DNA from: Candidatus Saccharimonadales bacterium
GTDB taxonomy: Bacteria > Patescibacteriota > Saccharimonadia > Saccharimonadales > JACDFO01
Direction of reading: 5' to 3'
DNA length: 53,531 nucleotides
Assembly (NCBI GenBank): GCA_038255465.1
Contig: JBBSLJ010000006.1
Span: 1 to 53,531, forward strand
Shown here piece after piece: positions 7,142 through 32,376 of this stretch. The position numbers and the translations under genes are program-made. Every line of letters starts with the position of its first letter. Position 1 is the stretch's first letter. The notes below the pieces were generated by a model. The model was given only the letters and a program-made list of their open reading frames with translations. It searched no databases and was not told the DNA's origin.

Positions 7142-7215
7142 TGGCTGGGGATGAGGGATTCGAACCCCCGATCGTGGAACCAGAATCCACTGCCTTACCA
7201 CTTGGCCAATCCCCA
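7142..7215 (-). tRNA. tRNA-Gln (anticodon CTG)
   Basis: TGGGGATTGGCCAAGTGGTAAGGCAGTGGATT-CTG-GTTCCACGATCGGGGGTTCGAATCCCTCATCCCCAGCCA. Forms a cloverleaf with encoded CCA. Confidence 0.97.
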
Positions 7216-7928: not shown

Positions 7929-8041
7929 CGTAAAAGTATAAAGAGTGCGGTAAGAGATCTAGCTCGTTGACCCGCCAGCAACCTATTCATTAAGAATAAG
8001 GTGCTCCATCTAGCCCGCCTGGCGGGAAAGATAAGTTTGCG
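7929..8041 (+). promoter_or_regulatory. SAM-I family (S-box) riboswitch aptamer
   Basis: AAGAG...GAGATCTAGCTCGTTGA...CAGCAACC...AAGGTGCT...GAAAGATAAG core, upstream of metE/metK. Confidence 0.85.
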
Positions 8042-26597: not shown

Positions 26598-27064
26598 GTT
26601 TAGATATTGAGCAGATCGTAAGAGAATATATAAATAAATCACTCCACATGTCGTTAGCGACTGTGAATAATGATATGCCGTGGGTATGCGAAGTCCATTT
26701 TGTCTATGATCAGATGCTCAATCTGTACTTTCGCTCACTTGCCTCAAGACGACATAGTCAAGAAATAATGAATAACCCATCTGTTGCTGGTAATATCGTT
26801 CGACAGCATGCGCTTGACGAGTATCCGCATGCTATTTATTTTGAAGGTAAAGCTAAAATAGTTGACGATGAAGGCCAGTATGAAAAATTGTATGCGCTTT
26901 TTAAGACAAGGCTTAACTGTAATGAAGAGATTATTGAAGATGCAAAAAAAGTAGACGGTCATAAGTTTTATAAAGTTTCGGTTGAAAACTGGTATGCTTT
27001 TGGAAAATTTGGTGACACAACAGGACAAAAGCACCGTCTAAGTTGGAATGGTGGCAATACATGA
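26594..27064 (+). CDS. Pyridoxamine 5'-phosphate oxidase-like (FMN split barrel) protein
   Basis: MSLATV...PW...LYFRS...RRHSQ...NPSVAG. Confidence 0.8.
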   Translation: MSLDIEQIVREYINKSLHMSLATVNNDMPWVCEVHFVYDQMLNLYFRSLASRRHSQEIMNNPSVAGNIVRQHALDEYPHAIYFEGKAKIVDDEGQYEKLYALFKTRLNCNEEIIEDAKKVDGHKFYKVSVENWYAFGKFGDTTGQKHRLSWNGGNT

Positions 27065-29520
27065 AAATAAGCGATAATTGGTTAAAGCAGTTTACTGATG
27101 TTTCTATGCCCATTGATGAATTTGTGGCCAAAATCGGAGCACAACTTGGTGCCGTCGAGGAAGTGATTGACTTAGGCAAAAAGTACCGTGGTATTGTGGT
27201 TGCCAAGGTTGTAGCCTGCGAACAACACCCTAATGCGGATAAGCTAAAAGTCTGCACTATTGACGACGGTGGTATTACCCCTGATGTCAATAGGGACGAA
27301 AACGGTCATGTCCAGGTGGTATGCGGGGCACCTAATGTCAGGGCGGGCCTGATGGTTGCTTGGCTTCCGCCAGGTTCGACTGTGCCGAGTTCGTATGATA
27401 AAGAACCGTTCGTGCTTGAAGCGCGTGACCTGCGCGGCGTCGTGAGTAACGGCATGCTTGCCAGCGCGGCTGAGTTGGCTATAAGTGATGATCACGACGG
27501 AATTGTCGAGGTTGATATAGAAGCTGCGCCAGGCACGGATTTTGCCGAATTATATGAACTCAACGATCATATTATTGATATAGAAAATAAAATGTTTACG
27601 CACCGTCCGGACTGCTTTGGTATTTTAGGTGTAGCTCGTGAGATTGCCGGCATTTGCCAGCTGCCATTTAAAAGCCCGGACTGGTACCGTGCGCCGCTTG
27701 ACCGCATAAAGCCAGGTAAGTCAGCCCTGCAACTGACCATCAAAAATGAAATAACCGATCTTGTGCCGCGTTTTATGGCGGTTGCGATGGCTGATGTAAC
27801 TATCAAGCCTAGCCCGCTCATTATTCAGACATATCTGAGCCGTGTCGGACTCAGGCCTATTAATAACGTAGTTGATGTAACAAATTACTTGATGATACTT
27901 ACCGGCCAGCCCACGCATGCATATGATTATGACAAACTAAACGGACCTAGCTTAGAGACGCGTCGTTCAAAAATTGGCGACAAGCTGAAGCTATTAAACG
28001 GCAAAGAGATAACCTTTCAGGACGATAGCACCGTTCTAATTACTTCCGCTGATGTACCTGTCGGTATCGGCGGCGTTATGGGTGGGGCTGACACAGAGGT
28101 TGGTGAATCTACCAAAAACATCGTGATTGAATGCGCTAACTTTAATATGTATTCCATCCGCCGCACCAGCATGAAGTACGGATTATTTACTGACGCTGTG
28201 ACGCGCTTTAACAAGGGCCAATCAGTCTTCCAGCCAGATGTAGTGCTGGAAGAAGCAGTGGCAACTATGCAATATGTATCAGGTGGTCATATAGCGAGTG
28301 AAGTATTTGACATAAAAAATCAGGAATTGACACCAGGGGCTGCTATCGAAGTAACATCTGGGTTTATTAATGTTCGATTAGGATCAGACCTTGCTACCGA
28401 AGACGTGGGGCGCTTGCTTGAAAACGTTGAATGTAGCGTTGAGTTGCATGGCGATACAGTTTTGGTAACACCGCCCTACTGGCGAACTGATATTGAAATT
28501 CCCGAAGATATCGTAGAAGAGGTGGGCCGTCTGCACGGTTATGATAATCTGCTGGTTAATCTCCCAAGATGTCAAATTAAACCTGTCAGGCTAAATGCTA
28601 TGTTGGCCCTTAAATCCAAAATCCGCCAGTCTTTGTCGAAAGCGGGCGCAAACGAAGTGCTAACGTATAGTTTTGTGCACGGCAATTTATTGGAAAAAGT
28701 CGGTCATGACAAGCAGAATGCTTTTCGGCTGAGCAATGCCCTTAGCCCAGGGCTTCAGTACTATCGCCAGAGTCTTTTGCCAAGCTTGCTTGAAAAGGTG
28801 CATCCAAATAGTAAGGCCGGGTTTGATACATTTGCGCTTTTTGAACTTAACAAAACGCATTCGAAGCTTTGGTCAGATGACGGCCTGCCAAAAGAACTCG
28901 AGAACCTCGGGCTTGTTGTTGCGGCAGATGACAAGATCAAACCTCATGGCGCTGCGTTTTATCAGGCCCGTAAATATCTTGATGAACTAGCTGCTTCTAT
29001 GGGCGTTCTGCTTCGCTACGAACCAATAAGCGAGGCACCAGAACATCCGGTGGCGGCACCTTTTGACATAAATCGCTCAGCTCAAGTCTATTTGGCGGAT
29101 ACAGATAAAACGTTAGGTTATATAGGTGAGTTTAGCTTAGCTACCAAAAAAGCACTTAAACTGCCATCGTATTGTGCCGGTTTTGAAATCAGCCTTTCCA
29201 GCACATTGGCGGAGTATAAGCCGACTTATCGACGGCTTTCTCGATTTCCAAGCGTAGAACAGGACATTTCACTGCGCGTGAAGGCAGACACGGCTTTTAA
29301 TGAGATTGAGCATTGCTTGCGAGAGAACTTTAATTTTCCTGAAGCCACTACGCACGAGTTTTATCCTATCGATATTTATCACAAGAATGACGTTAAACAT
29401 GTTACTTTCAGACTAAAGATTGCTTCATATCAAAAAACAATGACCGCACAAGAGGTGAACGAGCTGCTGGATAGCGTAGCAGCAAGAGCCAACGAAGCAT
29501 TAGGGGCAGAAAGAATATAA
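27061..29520 (+). CDS. pheT: Phenylalanyl-tRNA synthetase beta subunit
   Basis: HPNADKL, VCGAPN, RPDC, RTDIEIPEDIVEEVGR, C-terminal FDX-ACB domain. Confidence 0.97.
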   Translation: MKISDNWLKQFTDVSMPIDEFVAKIGAQLGAVEEVIDLGKKYRGIVVAKVVACEQHPNADKLKVCTIDDGGITPDVNRDENGHVQVVCGAPNVRAGLMVAWLPPGSTVPSSYDKEPFVLEARDLRGVVSNGMLASAAELAISDDHDGIVEVDIEAAPGTDFAELYELNDHIIDIENKMFTHRPDCFGILGVAREIAGICQLPFKSPDWYRAPLDRIKPGKSALQLTIKNEITDLVPRFMAVAMADVTIKPSPLIIQTYLSRVGLRPINNVVDVTNYLMILTGQPTHAYDYDKLNGPSLETRRSKIGDKLKLLNGKEITFQDDSTVLITSADVPVGIGGVMGGADTEVGESTKNIVIECANFNMYSIRRTSMKYGLFTDAVTRFNKGQSVFQPDVVLEEAVATMQYVSGGHIASEVFDIKNQELTPGAAIEVTSGFINVRLGSDLATEDVGRLLENVECSVELHGDTVLVTPPYWRTDIEIPEDIVEEVGRLHGYDNLLVNLPRCQIKPVRLNAMLALKSKIRQSLSKAGANEVLTYSFVHGNLLEKVGHDKQNAFRLSNALSPGLQYYRQSLLPSLLEKVHPNSKAGFDTFALFELNKTHSKLWSDDGLPKELENLGLVVAADDKIKPHGAAFYQARKYLDELAASMGVLLRYEPISEAPEHPVAAPFDINRSAQVYLADTDKTLGYIGEFSLATKKALKLPSYCAGFEISLSSTLAEYKPTYRRLSRFPSVEQDISLRVKADTAFNEIEHCLRENFNFPEATTHEFYPIDIYHKNDVKHVTFRLKIASYQKTMTAQEVNELLDSVAARANEALGAERI

Positions 29521-29543
29521 AGTAGGAATAAGTTTAGTAAAAC

Positions 29544-29571
29544 TTGCTTATTTGCATAAGAGTGGTATTAT
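29544..29571 (+). promoter_or_regulatory. Sigma70 promoter upstream of the large structured RNA
   Basis: TTGCTT, 16-nt spacer, TATTAT with an extended -10 TG. Confidence 0.55.
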
Positions 29572-29577
29572 TTTATA

Positions 29578-30441
29578 GCTAAACGATGGAGTTTTCTCCC
29601 GTAAAAGCGTACTTTGACAGGTGTGATCATATTTTCGTTCTAGTTTGCCGGGTATGACTGGTATCTCAGTTGACAGAGCTCTGCCAACTCATACCGCATA
29701 CAGGAAGGACCGGTGTCCCGCCCCCGCTCCGCTAACGCGCTTGCACGCTTAATGGCTGTGCGCGCCGACGCGTATGAGTGGTACAAGGATCGACTCTTTC
29801 TGTGTGTTCTTGGAGAAGCGTGAGTTCTAGTTGATTGACTAGTATTTCCTGCTACTTGCAGTTAATGCTTTGGCAATCATCGCCTCTCCACAATCGCGGA
29901 ATCGGCTAACCAGCCGTTTCTAGGGGGTAGGGAAAAAGGGTCCGTGACACCGGTGTGTCGCGTTGAGCCTGGTCAGTCTCCCTCGACTGGCTATTCCCGC
30001 CCGGGTCCCGGGGATGGCTTCCGCCAAGCCCCCTGGGATCCGTCATCGCGAGCTCGAAATTTTGAGCTCCACAGTTGCGAGTGCCGCGGATTCAGGCCCA
30101 CCCCAATGGGCTTTTGCGTCCGCGGCACTCGCGCCAGTTTGTCCATCGACTCACCCTAAGGAGGTGATTTAATTGCCACGTAGCGGCATGAGAGGCTGTA
30201 AGGGATGTTGCTCAGGATGCAACGGACGCGCTGGACGCAGCTCATTCGGAGGTCTCAGCAAGGTCACGTGCAGGTCTTGCGACAACACCTCACACGTAAG
30301 AGGCTGCCCAGAACGACCGCGCTGAGCGCAAACAAGAACGGAACAGACGAGCATTCGTGCTCACGCTTTGGCATATTGCCAAACCGTATCACACCTGTCC
30401 GTTCCCCAAAGTTTCTGAACACTCAGAGCCTTCGGGGAACG
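29578..30441 (+). ncRNA. Candidate large ornate structured RNA (~800-850 nt) containing an internal small ORF
   Basis: Nested long-range helices 29616-27/30388-99 (12/12) and 29633-48/30328-43 (15/16). More than 12 local hairpins, many with G-U pairs on the + strand. GC-richer than its flanks. Confidence 0.7.
30173..30325 (+). CDS. 50-aa Cys/Arg/Gly-rich putative zinc-binding microprotein
   Basis: TAAGGAGGTGAT (30157-68), TTG start, MPRSGMRGCKGCCSGCNGRAGRSSFGGLSKVTCRSCDNTSHVRGCPERPR, TGA stop. Confidence 0.6.
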   Translation: MPRSGMRGCKGCCSGCNGRAGRSSFGGLSKVTCRSCDNTSHVRGCPERPR

Positions 30442-30600
30442 ATCACTTGCTAGATCAAATTTCTTTAAATGTCATTTTCCCAATCCGTACATCACATAAA
30501 TGTATAATATTAAACGCTATAGCGTGAAATATTAAGCAAATTATTTTGTTGCGGTGGGTGAGTATTGTAGATGAACACTTAACGTGTTAAGCTTTACGTA

Positions 30601-32376
30601 ATGAATGCTATTTGGAAAATTTTGGTTTCAACCCGCGAGCTAAAGCGCTATTACATAGCCGTGAGTCTGATCATGGTCGCCGTATCTTTAACGGGACTTA
30701 TCGCACCAATTGTGAGCGGTAGGGCCGTTGATGAGCTTCGTTTGGGCGCTGACGCTCGTATCTCATTTCTTGTTATGCTGGCCGTGGCTATTTTTGCGCT
30801 TGACGTAGTTAATACATTTTTGAACAACATTGGTGGATATCTTGGCGATCAAATGTCTGCCAAACTTATTAAGATACTTTCTGTGCGCTACTATGAACAC
30901 CTGCTGAGCTTGCCACAGCGTTACTTTGACACAGAACTATCCGGCAAGATCATTAACCGGCTGAACCGATCAATCCAGCAAATTGCCACCTGGATGCAGA
31001 TGATGAGCAACAACTTTCTTCAGTTTATTTTTAGTACGGTGTTTTCGCTCGGGGTCATTGCTTACTACAGCCTGCCTGTGGCGTTCTTGCTATTTTTGCT
31101 GTATCCCATTTATATTTGGCAAACGGTCAGAACAAGCAATACTTGGCAAAAGTATCAGTCGGACAAAAACCATCAGTTTGATATGGCTTCCGGACGATTC
31201 GCAGAGTCAATTAGCCAGGTTAAAGTAGTTAAAAGCTTTAACCAAGAACAACATGAGCTTAGCTTCTTCAAGCGATTTGCCCAGAAAGCAGTTGACATCA
31301 ATAAGCCGCAGTCAAAGTTCTGGCACATTCGTGATGTTCGTCGGCGCCTGGTTTTAAATGCTATTTTTCTGCTGGTATACGGCTTTATATTTGTCCAGGC
31401 TGCCCAGGGACTTTATAGCCCTGGATCTGCCGTAGTACTCATTTTATTAGCGAATCAGATCAGAATTCCTATTTTTACTATTAGCTTTTTGGTAGAAAGT
31501 ACCCAGCGCGCAGTAGCGGACAGCAAAGATTATTTTGAAATTATGAATAAAAAACCAGAGATCGCCGACAAGCTTGGTGCAAGTAAACTAAAAGTGACGC
31601 AAGGCAGCATAGTTTTTGACGCAATGTCATTTAGCTATGACAAAAAACAACCGATTCTAAAAGACATCAGCCTTGAAATTGAGCCAGATACTAAAATCGC
31701 CTTAGTTGGTGAAAGCGGGGAGGGTAAAACCACCCTTACCAACTTACTGCTGAGGTTATACGAACCGGAGCGCGGAGAAATAAGAATTGATGAGCAGAAT
31801 ATAGGTAACGTTACGCAGGCCAGTTTGAGGGCTGCTATTGGTGTGGTGTTTCAGGAACCGGCATTGTTTAGCGGAAGTATCAAAGAGAACATTGCGTACG
31901 CCCGTCCGCACGCAACTATAAAACAGATCACCGCGGCTGCAAAAGCTGCAAATGCCCACGACTTTATCACAAAACTCGGGGAAGGCTATGATACTGAAAT
32001 CGGAGAACGCGGGCTAAGACTATCCGGAGGTCAAAAACAACGTATTGCCATAGCAAGGGCGTTGTTAAAAGATGCGCCTATTCTGATTCTTGATGAAGCT
32101 ACCAGCAGCCTGGACAGCAAGTCAGAAACAATGGTGCAGGTAGCGCTTGAACGGCTTATGCAAGGACGCACTACAATTATTATTGCTCACCGACTGAGCA
32201 CTATTCAGCACGTCGATCAGATTGTAACGATTAAAGATGGACGTATCAACGAGGTTGGTTCGCCAGCGCGCCTAGCTAAAAGCGGCGGGATTTATGCTCA
32301 GCTGCTTGATCTGCAGCGCGGGAAGAAATCAGAATCCACCAAGAAAAAACTGCGACAATTTGAAATAAATGCATAA
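30601..32376 (+). CDS. ABC exporter, fused permease/ATPase
   Basis: TM domain plus GESGEGKTT, LSGGQKQR, ILDEAT. Confidence 0.95.
   Translation: MNAIWKILVSTRELKRYYIAVSLIMVAVSLTGLIAPIVSGRAVDELRLGADARISFLVMLAVAIFALDVVNTFLNNIGGYLGDQMSAKLIKILSVRYYEHLLSLPQRYFDTELSGKIINRLNRSIQQIATWMQMMSNNFLQFIFSTVFSLGVIAYYSLPVAFLLFLLYPIYIWQTVRTSNTWQKYQSDKNHQFDMASGRFAESISQVKVVKSFNQEQHELSFFKRFAQKAVDINKPQSKFWHIRDVRRRLVLNAIFLLVYGFIFVQAAQGLYSPGSAVVLILLANQIRIPIFTISFLVESTQRAVADSKDYFEIMNKKPEIADKLGASKLKVTQGSIVFDAMSFSYDKKQPILKDISLEIEPDTKIALVGESGEGKTTLTNLLLRLYEPERGEIRIDEQNIGNVTQASLRAAIGVVFQEPALFSGSIKENIAYARPHATIKQITAAAKAANAHDFITKLGEGYDTEIGERGLRLSGGQKQRIAIARALLKDAPILILDEATSSLDSKSETMVQVALERLMQGRTTIIIAHRLSTIQHVDQIVTIKDGRINEVGSPARLAKSGGIYAQLLDLQRGKKSESTKKKLRQFEINA

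Follow-up and report, generated by a model that had tools for sequence, protein, structure and literature searches.

A predicted zinc microprotein gene as an optional coding module of a large structured RNA in Saccharibacteria-type bacteria

Introduction

When a short open reading frame (ORF) lies inside a large structured RNA, is it a gene, and does it belong to that RNA? This question is raised by an intergenic gap of 1080 nt (29521-30600) in a 53,531-nt stretch of DNA from a Candidatus Saccharimonadales bacterium (GenBank assembly GCA_038255465.1, contig JBBSLJ010000006.1), which was analyzed over its whole length and is called the window here. The gap holds a structured RNA together with an ORF for a small Cys-rich protein. 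An initial annotation, made from the letters of the window alone, had read the ORF as a zinc-knuckle-like microprotein and had proposed either a dual-function RNA that encodes its own RNA-binding or chaperone peptide or a regulatory 5' untranslated region (UTR) that gates a small zinc protein. Only a few large ornate RNAs are known from bacteria, most of them without a known function. The computational analysis reported here leads us to favor, with a probability of roughly 0.7, a selected gene for a two-zinc microprotein that is carried as the optional sole cistron of a structured RNA transcript of about 870 nt.

Results

Codon-level selection on the ORF

The distribution of the ORF was investigated using a six-frame search, which covered 401 genomes of the order and returned 12 matches at E<=0.01. 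On inspection, these comprised seven long forms, two short forms, one divergent eight-ligand variant (G185) and two spurious matches. The long forms (G000, which is the genome of the window, and G001, G331, G128, G077, G030 and G091) represent five families, and the short forms (G210 and G290) read MERCPACNGKG...C..C.GKG. Statements of absence made here and below cover the sampled genomes; the relatives are not independent of one another, and the RNA structures are predictions combined with covariation.

The initial annotation had described a basic protein of 50 residues with 7 Cys and 1 His, and this was borne out by the sequence: the ligands are Cys 9, 12, 13, 16, 33, 36 and 45 and His 41, in the layout CxxCCxxC...CxxCx4Hx3C, and 10 Arg/Lys stand against 2 Asp/Glu, giving a net charge of about +8. 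It had also proposed dN/dS and the conservation of Cys and His as checks. We observed an excess of third-codon-position differences in all 21 pairs of the seven long ORFs (23 to 40 differences, compared to 12 to 24 at positions 1 and 2), with proportions of synonymous differences (pS) of 0.62 to 1.0, at which synonymous sites are saturated, and of nonsynonymous differences (pN) of 0.23 to 0.50. The ORFs of G000 and G001 differ at 13, 14 and 36 sites of the three codon positions over 49 codons and by one in-frame codon indel. All eight ligands (C9, C12, C13, C16, C33, C36, H41 and C45) are invariant in the seven sequences of alignment A4, as are G5, G11, G18, G21, G27, L28 and R48; the G091 homologue also has 7 Cys and a His. 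The ORF segment is without conserved RNA structure (18 predicted pairs, 2 of them compensatory, -5.3 kcal/mol), and its conservation is therefore at the protein level. Judged by these codon patterns, the window ORF is a genuine gene under purifying selection.

Gene callers almost never call this gene. A HMMER scan of 1.84 billion representative proteins gave four matches, only one of which is a true homologue (P0004, 59 residues, called from an upstream start); P0005 is a repeat protein built of units resembling the short forms, and P0003 (26 matched stretches) and P0006 are multi-knuckle proteins, the latter typical of eukaryotic CNBP-type proteins. No further peptide homologue was found by a word-based protein search, no relative by metagenome scans with the window protein and alignment A5, and no homologue by a peptide-based viral scan. 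A scan of the genome collection with a loose pattern gave at least 119 matching stretches, 80 of which were listed (L026-L105). Among the matches listed, nearly all are chance occurrences in unrelated phyla, and the RNA and the peptide occur together in four only (L050, L065, L066 and L081), all from Candidatus Saccharibacteria.

Shine-Dalgarno sequence and start codon

The ORF starts with TTG at 30173-30175, and GGAGG (30160-30164) lies 8 nt before it within a 12-nt Shine-Dalgarno (SD) sequence, TAAGGAGGTGAT, just as the initial annotation had it. The 11-nt SD core AAGGAGGTGAT occurs once in the window, both strands considered, compared to 0.02 occurrences expected from shuffles, while an SD core of at least 4 nt is found at -20 to -4 in only 11 of 48 ORFs of at least 150 residues (first-start approximation). 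The complementarity rests on the canonical bacterial 16S rRNA 3' end and not on G000's own 16S. Two partial 16S rRNA 5' fragments lie on separate contigs of G000 (G000:C61:1455-2361 and C98:445-1078), with no assembled 3' end, which points to a broken-up rRNA operon, or else to a bin that contains two strains. The SD sequence is conserved: GGAGGTGA, or GAAGGTGA in G128, of the pattern G[GA]AGGTGA, precedes the start by 5 to 6 nt in all seven long-form homologues, the start codons being TTG in four, ATG in two and CTG in one (G001).

A hairpin TCACC/GGTGA that would bury part of the SD sequence had also been proposed. The hairpin exists, ending at 30167 rather than 30166, but its sequestering effect did not exceed chance. 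The local fold at the SD sequence has -7.5 kcal/mol, compared to -7.9 +/- 2.5 kcal/mol when the upstream part is shuffled, and 55% of the shuffles were at least as stable. Similarly, the SD folds of 12 ORF-bearing RNAs were not stabler than controls with shuffled upstream parts (fraction at least as stable, 0.08 to 0.90), and SD sequestration was dropped as evidence. The motif CCATCGA, which lies between the long hairpin of the RNA and the SD module, is found in exact form in G000 (528) and G264 (479) only; forms with one mismatch occur at scattered positions in G063, G075, G224, G331, G210 and others.

A family of large structured RNAs

The RNA around the ORF was investigated at the level of its fold and of its relatives. 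Region 29590-30450 has a minimum free energy (MFE) of -379 kcal/mol, compared to -303 +/- 7 kcal/mol for dinucleotide shuffles (z = -10.8), and the GC content of the gap is 0.53 to 0.63 vs 0.37 to 0.47 in its flanks. These values and the covarying helices confirmed the large folded RNA that had been proposed around the ORF. Model R1, a sequence model of the RNA 5' end that finds sites independently of the peptide, matched 17 of 151 genomes of the order, 14 of which were verified by the partner strand of the outer closing helix (P1) and the terminal hairpin. The model matched 6 of 20 genomes in the family of G128 (one left unused) and gave five weak matches among 151 genomes in the largest family, one or two of which look real. 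False or unverified matches were set aside in G090 (start of an open frame, no P1 partner), G053 (Ns) and G146, G722, G770 and G710 (no partner). Altogether, 19 RNAs were verified and analyzed, measuring 326 to 1166 nt from P1 to P1, and about 9% of the genomes sampled from this Saccharibacteria-type order have a family member at the pheT/ABC exporter locus.

P1 pairs GACAGGTGTGAT with ATCACACCTGTC over 12 bp. Across 18 RNAs, 208 of 216 cells form Watson-Crick pairs, 2 form G-U pairs and 6 are unpaired; this count leaves aside G091, whose helix was read separately. There are 14 different 5' strands among the 19 RNAs, and 9 of the 12 positions have at least two Watson-Crick pair types. In the two-tier terminal hairpin, 14 of 17 pairs are changed on both sides (compensatory, G-U pairs included); 79.3% of the cells are paired, compared to 39 to 49% with a slid partner, and the observed covariation was reached by no shuffle. 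RNAalifold gave no pairs on the poor MAFFT alignment of the 3' domains, so the pairs were counted on the structure of the G000 row, a choice that somewhat favors structure. The inner closing helix, P2, has equivalents in G001, G128 and G096, and its 3' strand begins 4 to 11 nt after the stop codon in these RNAs and in G000. The initial annotation had placed the stop 2 nt before the closing helix; the gap to the P2 3' strand is 4 nt in the MFE fold. Small hairpins like Ha and Hb are found at the same place in G001, G096, G128, G331 and G077. Upstream of the RNA, the window has a -10-like box, which a consensus promoter scan missed because the -35 region is weak, and TATAAT-type boxes lie at the same distance in relatives. 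A T-tract follows the terminal hairpin in only 3 of the 19 RNAs (G001, G102 and G290).

No relevant Rfam match was obtained at E<=10 in 29300-30700, and none at gathering score for the RNA; at the loci of eight relatives, there was none at E<=0.1 besides tRNAs and one chance match to mir-3613. The host RNA is thus a new family that matches no Rfam model. Identity with RNase P RNA was rejected, since that RNA is found elsewhere in G000 (G000:C16:9617-10321), where the match is 705 nt long, compared to 367 model positions, at 215.7 bits; the RNase P RNA of G000 seems to carry large insertions. Identity with tmRNA was rejected as well, because 29300-30700 has no tRNA-like domain by ARAGORN or Rfam and the true tmRNA lies on contig G000:C1.

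The variable domain of three RNAs (G091, G290 and G210) contains tRNA genes in sense. In G091, this is a tRNA-Pro(TGG), anticodon UGG (L011, 1811-1884, minus strand), with no close copy elsewhere in the 99%-complete genome, the next-best matches being other tRNA species. G290 has two tRNAs with odd anticodons (L016, 741-816 and 1153-1227; one a 4-nt anticodon call, one Asp(ATC)), and G210 has two weak tRNA matches that ARAGORN did not call (L014, 1924-2083, minus strand). No tRNA was found in the window's own RNA. A second site in G077 (L176, G077:C9, about 235730-235775, minus strand) has the 5' motif and, 526 nt downstream, the partner of a perfect 12-bp P1-like repeat (GACAAGTAGGCA/TGCCTACTTGTC). 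It flanks an SD-led ORF for an 88-residue membrane-protein-like product, has no terminal hairpin and was left out of the family.

The ORF as an optional part of the RNA

The relationship between the ORF and the RNA was then considered from both sides. The 5' motif, closing helix and terminal hairpin accompany the peptide at every site where it was found, so that its homologues do sit in a similar RNA, as the initial annotation had asked. Conversely, the peptide profile is present in 9 of the 19 RNAs and absent from the other ten. Three RNAs hold a different SD-led mini-ORF at the same site, each a single sequence (G096, G102 and G099; Table 1), and seven have no convincing ORF (G063, G075, G047, G224 and G264, with G081 and G106 doubtful). 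Even within one family, f29, the ORF is present in G128 and G331 and missing from G224 and G264. The genomes of 10 of 11 peptide-less RNAs gave no peptide match at E<=0.01 in the six-frame sample (the second site of G077 excepted). Since nine of the 19 RNAs were first found via the peptide, the carriage count is biased; in the RNA-based sample of the order, carriage is 6 of 14 for the peptide family (G000, G001, G030, G077, G091 and G128) and 9 of 14 for any SD-led mini-ORF, with G096, G099 and G102 added.

Between the stop codon and the P1 3' strand there are 60 to 77 nt in 10 of the 11 ORF-bearing RNAs computed, unrelated peptides included. The proposal that the ORF is a module inside the RNA fold, as in tmRNA, therefore holds for the module, which has a fixed site, and fails for the analogy, since there is no tRNA-like domain. 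The alternative of a regulatory 5' UTR of the peptide does not simply apply, because 7 of the 19 members lack the ORF yet keep the covarying helices. Homologous RNAs without the SD sequence or the ORF, which the initial annotation had held to speak against its reading, are indeed found among the family members; those RNAs that do have the ORF keep it intact and under purifying selection. On this distribution and the codon patterns, the structured RNA carries the ORF as an optional coding module that is under selection. Of the two, the RNA has the wider distribution and is the older, and it looks like a platform whose cargo can be exchanged.

What the protein resembles

The sequence of the protein was compared with known zinc proteins. 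The initial annotation had noted echoes of zinc knuckles and of DnaJ; both are genuine, if weak. By profile comparison, the C-terminal half, CxxCxNTxHxxxCP, gave a weak match to the CCHC knuckles of Air2 (PDB 3nyb_B, E 0.021). This half is similar to knuckles of the retroviral NC, Air2 and CNBP type and basic, as suits binding to single-stranded nucleic acid. It departs from the canonical C-x2-C-x4-H-x4-C in reading C-x2-C-x4-H-x3-C; the His-Cys spacing is 3 in five of the seven long forms, G030 has C-x3-H-x3-C, and the canonical spacing is found in just one of the seven long forms, G091. PF00098 did not match the window and G001 proteins at E<=10, nor the 10 members of alignment A1 at E<=1.

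The short forms (G210 and G290) and the 41-residue ORF of G096 match DnaJ_CXXCXGXG (PF00684; E 9e-5 to 5e-4) and Anti-TRAP (PF15777; E 1e-3 to 4e-3). They have the exact CxxCxGxG motif at 20.7 to 23.1 bits, compared to a cut-off of 32.7 bits, and stay below the cut-offs of both families. The window protein has C13-S-G-C16-N-G-R-A-G, i.e., CxxCxGxxG, one residue off that motif, and gave no Pfam match. Anti-TRAP (RtpA/YczA of Bacillus subtilis) and the Cys-rich domain of DnaJ share with it the small size of a stand-alone zinc mini-protein of about 50 residues, the CxxC pairs and a Gly-rich turn. A long structured leader, a T-box, also precedes the Anti-TRAP coding sequence, according to the part of PMC11255114 consulted. 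Unlike in these proteins, the first two CxxC motifs of the window protein are fused (CxxCCxxC), its last pair is HxxxC, and its host RNA exists without the protein; neither a TRAP system nor a T-box was detected in the window.

A class-wide profile search matched 9 of 401 genomes. Among its marginal matches, those of G425 and G419 are a four-motif version (CxxCxGxG-CxxCxGxG...GGL...CxxCxxSG-CxxCxGxG), that of G458 is a two-motif version, and G603, like G185, has CxxCCPxxH...CxxCxxTxHxRGC, in which His replaces Cys; the match in G629 contains stops and was discarded as spurious. The four-motif mini-domains (L023 of G425 and L025 of G419, about 1500-1610, from other orders) end longer frames of 95 to 118 codons, with no P1-like motif nearby. 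In all related forms, the ligand count is eight or four. We infer that the window protein is a compacted hairpin of the DnaJ/Anti-TRAP type with a knuckle-like C terminus and two nested zinc sites, of which the outer would be formed by C9, C12, H41 and C45 and the inner by C13, C16, C33 and C36. ESM Atlas gave an uninformative best score of 0.82, and PHROGs matches came from only 2 of 10 members, to families mostly without function.

Locus and neighboring genes

The RNA is chromosomal and single-copy in G000 (1.21 Mb in 104 contigs; relatives, 0.5 to 1.4 Mb). The usual gene order across families is pheT, RNA, ABC exporter, NUDIX and FKBP, and a PNPOx-like protein is also encoded nearby; the ABC exporter has no peptidase domain. 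An ABC orthologue starts 66 to 202 nt after P1 on the same strand at 13 of the 19 loci; the ABC gene found at that place in G091 is a distant one. In G264 and G102 the ABC gene is gone and the RNA remains, followed by NUDIX in G264 and by FKBP in G102, while the RNAs of G099, G210 and G290 sit elsewhere, at loci lacking ABC, NUDIX and FKBP altogether. Between the RNA and the ABC gene, -10-like boxes or a conserved TGTTAAGCT element lie 7 to 16 nt before the ABC start codon. In the window, the palindrome CTTAAC-GT-GTTAAG (within AACACTTAACGTGTTAAG, 30574-30591) is placed 10 nt before that codon, and an element ending in GTGTTAAGCTTTA recurs before the orthologous ABC gene of G001, G081, G075, G106 and G047; the palindrome may be an operator or the extended -10 of a near-leaderless promoter. 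The sole Rfam matches at gathering score in the whole window are a SAM riboswitch (S-box; 7933-8037, plus strand, 57.2 bits) and a tRNA-Gln(CTG) gene (7142-7215, minus strand). The features of the locus are collected in Table 1.

Table 1. Features of the RNA, its ORF and the flanking genes (window positions), and mini-ORFs of other RNAs (positions in the locus named)
Feature	Position	Strand	Remarks
Phenylalanyl-tRNA synthetase beta-chain gene (pheT)	27043-29520		Upstream of the gap
-10-like box TATTAT	29566-29571	+	TG two bases upstream; putative RNA promoter
P0, 5' hairpin GGAG-TTTT-CTCC	29588-29599	+	GGTTGAG...CTCCC form kept in most of the 19 members
Single-stranded motif CGTACTTT	29608-29615	+	Directly before P1; conserved in alignments A2 and A3; in model R1
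P1 5' strand GACAGGTGTGAT, outer closing helix	29616-29627	+	Pairs with 30388-30399
P2 5' strand, inner closing helix	29633-29646	+	Pairs with 30330-30343 in the MFE fold
Variable GC-rich central domain	29647-30139	+	Ends in long hairpin 30077-30132; length-variable part of the RNA family
CCATCGA motif	30143-30149	+	Between long hairpin and SD module; weak evidence
Local hairpin TCACC (30151-30155)/GGTGA (30163-30167)	30151-30167	+	5 pairs; overlaps SD; no stabler than shuffles
SD sequence TAAGGAGGTGAT	30157-30168	+	12 nt; unique in window
ORF, 50-residue basic Cys7His1 microprotein	30173-30325	+	TTG start, TGA stop
4-bp hairpin GCGC-TGA-GCGC	30319-30329	+	Stop codon in loop; MFE fold, G000 only
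P2 3' strand	30330-30343	+	4 nt after stop codon
Hairpin Ha (GAGC/GCTC)	30349-30362	+	
Hairpin Hb	30363-30387	+	
P1 3' strand ATCACACCTGTC	30388-30399	+	
Two-tier terminal hairpin CGTTCCCC...GGGGAACG	30400-30441	+	In 19/19 members; no T-tract after it in the window
ABC exporter gene	30601-32376		Downstream of the gap; followed by NUDIX and FKBP genes
Mini-ORF of G096	L165 2000-2125		41-residue CxxCxGxG protein
Mini-ORF of G102	L173 1680-1826		48-residue CxxC...CxxC protein
Mini-ORF of G099	L174 944-1084	minus	46-residue charged, Cys-free peptide

Discussion

The favored explanation is a transcript of about 870 nt (approximately 29578-30441) with the ORF as its only cistron. Its elements would follow each other in the order 5' hairpin, P1, P2, variable domain, SD-ORF module, two small hairpins and two-tier terminal hairpin. 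Quite likely, SD-driven translation yields the protein at a low level, with two Zn bound. At the stop codon, 4 to 11 nt before P2, a ribosome would have to open P2, so translation and the closed RNA fold would momentarily exclude each other; that translation is in this way coupled to the global fold is a suggestion that we make with some reserve. Slightly more tentative still is the idea that the basic zinc protein may bind nucleic acid, with its own host RNA as the most plausible target. The most far-reaching version, in which a new class of large (0.3 to 1.2 kb) ornate RNA in Saccharibacteria would be a self-contained ribonucleoprotein platform whose conserved P1/P2 frame takes up exchangeable cargo and encodes its own zinc-finger partner, we regard as rather unlikely. 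Such cargo would consist of tRNAs or tRNA-like modules; for about half of the members, it would also include the gene of the zinc-finger partner, a protein produced in cis and loaded onto the RNA while the terminating ribosome opens P2.

Several observations weigh against the favored explanation. The window protein has no Pfam or NCBIfam match. Its AlphaFold model is mediocre, with a predicted local distance difference test (pLDDT) score of 70.8 and no regular secondary structure, and comparison of the model with the PDB gave no match with Foldseek and no chain with Z>=2 with VIA-align wide. The promoter of the RNA is weak by consensus, the local hairpin at the SD sequence is at chance level, and CTG is the only possible start codon of the G001 homologue at that position. 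Of the 10 folds inspected, no more than 4 place P2 directly after the stop. Among the short forms, the SD-proximal ATG of G290 is in frame with the Cys peptide (MGWLTNPPKMERC...), while in G210 a single-base difference from G290 in a run of C residues shifts that ATG out of frame; this could reflect an assembly error, decay or the use of an internal ATG. Finally, the RNA occurs without the peptide in genomes with no peptide match elsewhere, which suggests an RNA that works without this protein and makes an obligatory RNA-protein pair less likely.

Two other explanations keep both the RNA and the ORF but assign the RNA a subordinate role. The whole RNA might be a giant cis-acting leader of the ABC exporter-NUDIX-FKBP genes, with the ORF as an upstream regulatory cistron in the manner of BmrB/bmrCD. 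The same-strand ABC orthologue shortly after P1 at 13 of 19 loci, the stop codon near P2 and the scarcity of T-tracts (3 of 19), which makes read-through plausible, all agree with such a leader, and a leader peptide that governs an ABC exporter has a precedent (PMC4191407, in the part consulted). It is nevertheless an unlikely explanation, since the RNA is kept without the ABC gene (G264 and G102, and the loci of G099, G210 and G290), RNAs without the ORF still precede the ABC gene (G063, G075, G047 and G224), and the peptide is conserved as a metal-binding fold and not as a run of regulatory codons; the -10-like boxes before the ABC start suggest that this gene may have its own near-leaderless promoter. 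Alternatively, the RNA could be only the untranslated part of a microprotein mRNA, serving stability or translational control, with the ORF-less copies as decaying remnants. One promoter-like region with one cistron, a strong SD sequence and a weak start codon would suit an mRNA, as would an ORF at the same place in every carrier and the homology of short and long peptides across distant families, which suggests an old ORF. That P1, the terminal hairpin and compensatory changes are retained in members without the ORF, with folds of -217 to -303 kcal/mol, is unexpected of remnants, and the unrelated ORFs at the same site (G096, G102 and G099) and the tRNAs in three RNAs fit exchangeable cargo; we therefore consider this explanation improbable.

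The remaining explanations would change the nature of the peptide, of the helix or of the ORF itself. Because a Cys-rich small peptide adjoins an ABC exporter gene, it could be a secreted or modified product, such as a bacteriocin precursor or a ribosomally synthesized and posttranslationally modified peptide (RiPP), and Zn-tetracysteine RiPPs do exist (bioRxiv 10.1101/2024.10.02.616296, seen in part). The neighbors (PheT, an ABC exporter without a peptidase domain, NUDIX, FKBP and a PNPOx-like protein) include no known RiPP enzyme, however, the 50 residues, with a net charge of about +8, show neither a leader/core split nor a signal-like segment, and G210 and G290 carry the peptide without the ABC gene, which leaves very little room for an exported product. 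The perfect 12-bp inverted repeats, lying 326 to 1166 bp apart around variable content, could also be read at the DNA level as ends of a miniature transposon or of an invertible segment with the ORF as a passenger, all the more as the second repeat pair of G077 flanks an 88-residue membrane ORF without a terminal hairpin. Against this stand the single copy in G000, a fixed syntenic locus across families, a GC-rich interior that folds far better than shuffles, and covariation in the terminal hairpin, which lies outside the repeats; the G-U pairs in P1 and the terminal hairpin, together with the massive GC-rich fold, speak for an RNA rather than a DNA repeat, and mobile ends are accordingly hard to credit. 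Equally disfavored is a chance open frame in a noncoding RNA. GC-rich structured RNAs often hold short frames, several others overlap the region, and the protein databases offer no annotation beyond one 59-residue entry, but chance would not account for the third-position excess in 21 of 21 pairs, the in-frame indel, the invariant ligands and the conserved SD sequence, and no conserved RNA pairing is there to explain the conservation of the ORF.

A selected ORF in a structured RNA calls for comparison with known systems. Dual-function RNAs such as RNAIII/hld, SgrS/SgrT, SR1/SR1P and VcdRP also combine a structured RNA and a small conserved ORF on one transcript (reviewed in PMC12310071 and PMC12612679, both consulted in part). 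They are base-pairing small RNAs of about 100 to 500 nt, whereas the RNAs described here are ornate, have 0.3 to 1.2 kb and a long-range helix, and carry other cargo or none. Coding selection and helix conservation independent of the ORF would fit a dual-function RNA, as far as sequence comparison goes. As described in the sources on GOLLD consulted in part, its size, variable region and embedded tRNAs recall the family of the window; unlike GOLLD and ROOL, the RNA is chromosomal and syntenic and not phage-borne, and the Rfam models of GOLLD, ROOL, OLE and HEARO are unmatched. The parts consulted do not mention an embedded SD-led ORF for GOLLD or ROOL. With tmRNA, the RNA shares an ORF within a structure closed by distant pairing, but the tag ORF of tmRNA has neither an SD sequence nor a start codon, while the window ORF has its own SD sequence and TTG and encodes a conserved fold. 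BmrB/bmrCD resembles it in the small ORF and hairpins directly upstream of an ABC exporter gene (PMC4191407, same part); unlike that attenuator, the RNA is also found where the ABC gene or the ORF is missing, and most copies of its hairpin do not resemble a terminator.

Literature searches gave, by title or abstract, no large RNA or zinc microprotein described for Saccharibacteria or the candidate phyla radiation (CPR). The texts consulted, which do not extend to supplements, describe no ornate RNA of about 0.8 kb with an optional conserved cistron for a zinc protein. In the main texts of PMC5737381 and PMC8040213, the terms searched turned up only a lysM-TM7 motif, or nothing; their supplementary motif lists could hold the RNA.

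The locus would represent one of the rare instances in which a large structured RNA also contains a protein-coding cistron. The missed microprotein family shows how much small-protein space may be hidden in reduced, uncultivated bacteria. Since the host genomes have about 1 Mb and 1 kb of noncoding DNA is costly to them, the RNA is likely to matter. One RNA frame holding a zinc-protein ORF, other mini-ORFs, tRNAs or nothing offers a natural system for the acquisition of coding modules, and the same system lets one ask whether translation and RNA folding are coupled. Should binding of the protein to its host RNA be confirmed, the locus would exemplify with unusual clarity an RNA that encodes its own partner or protein subunit.

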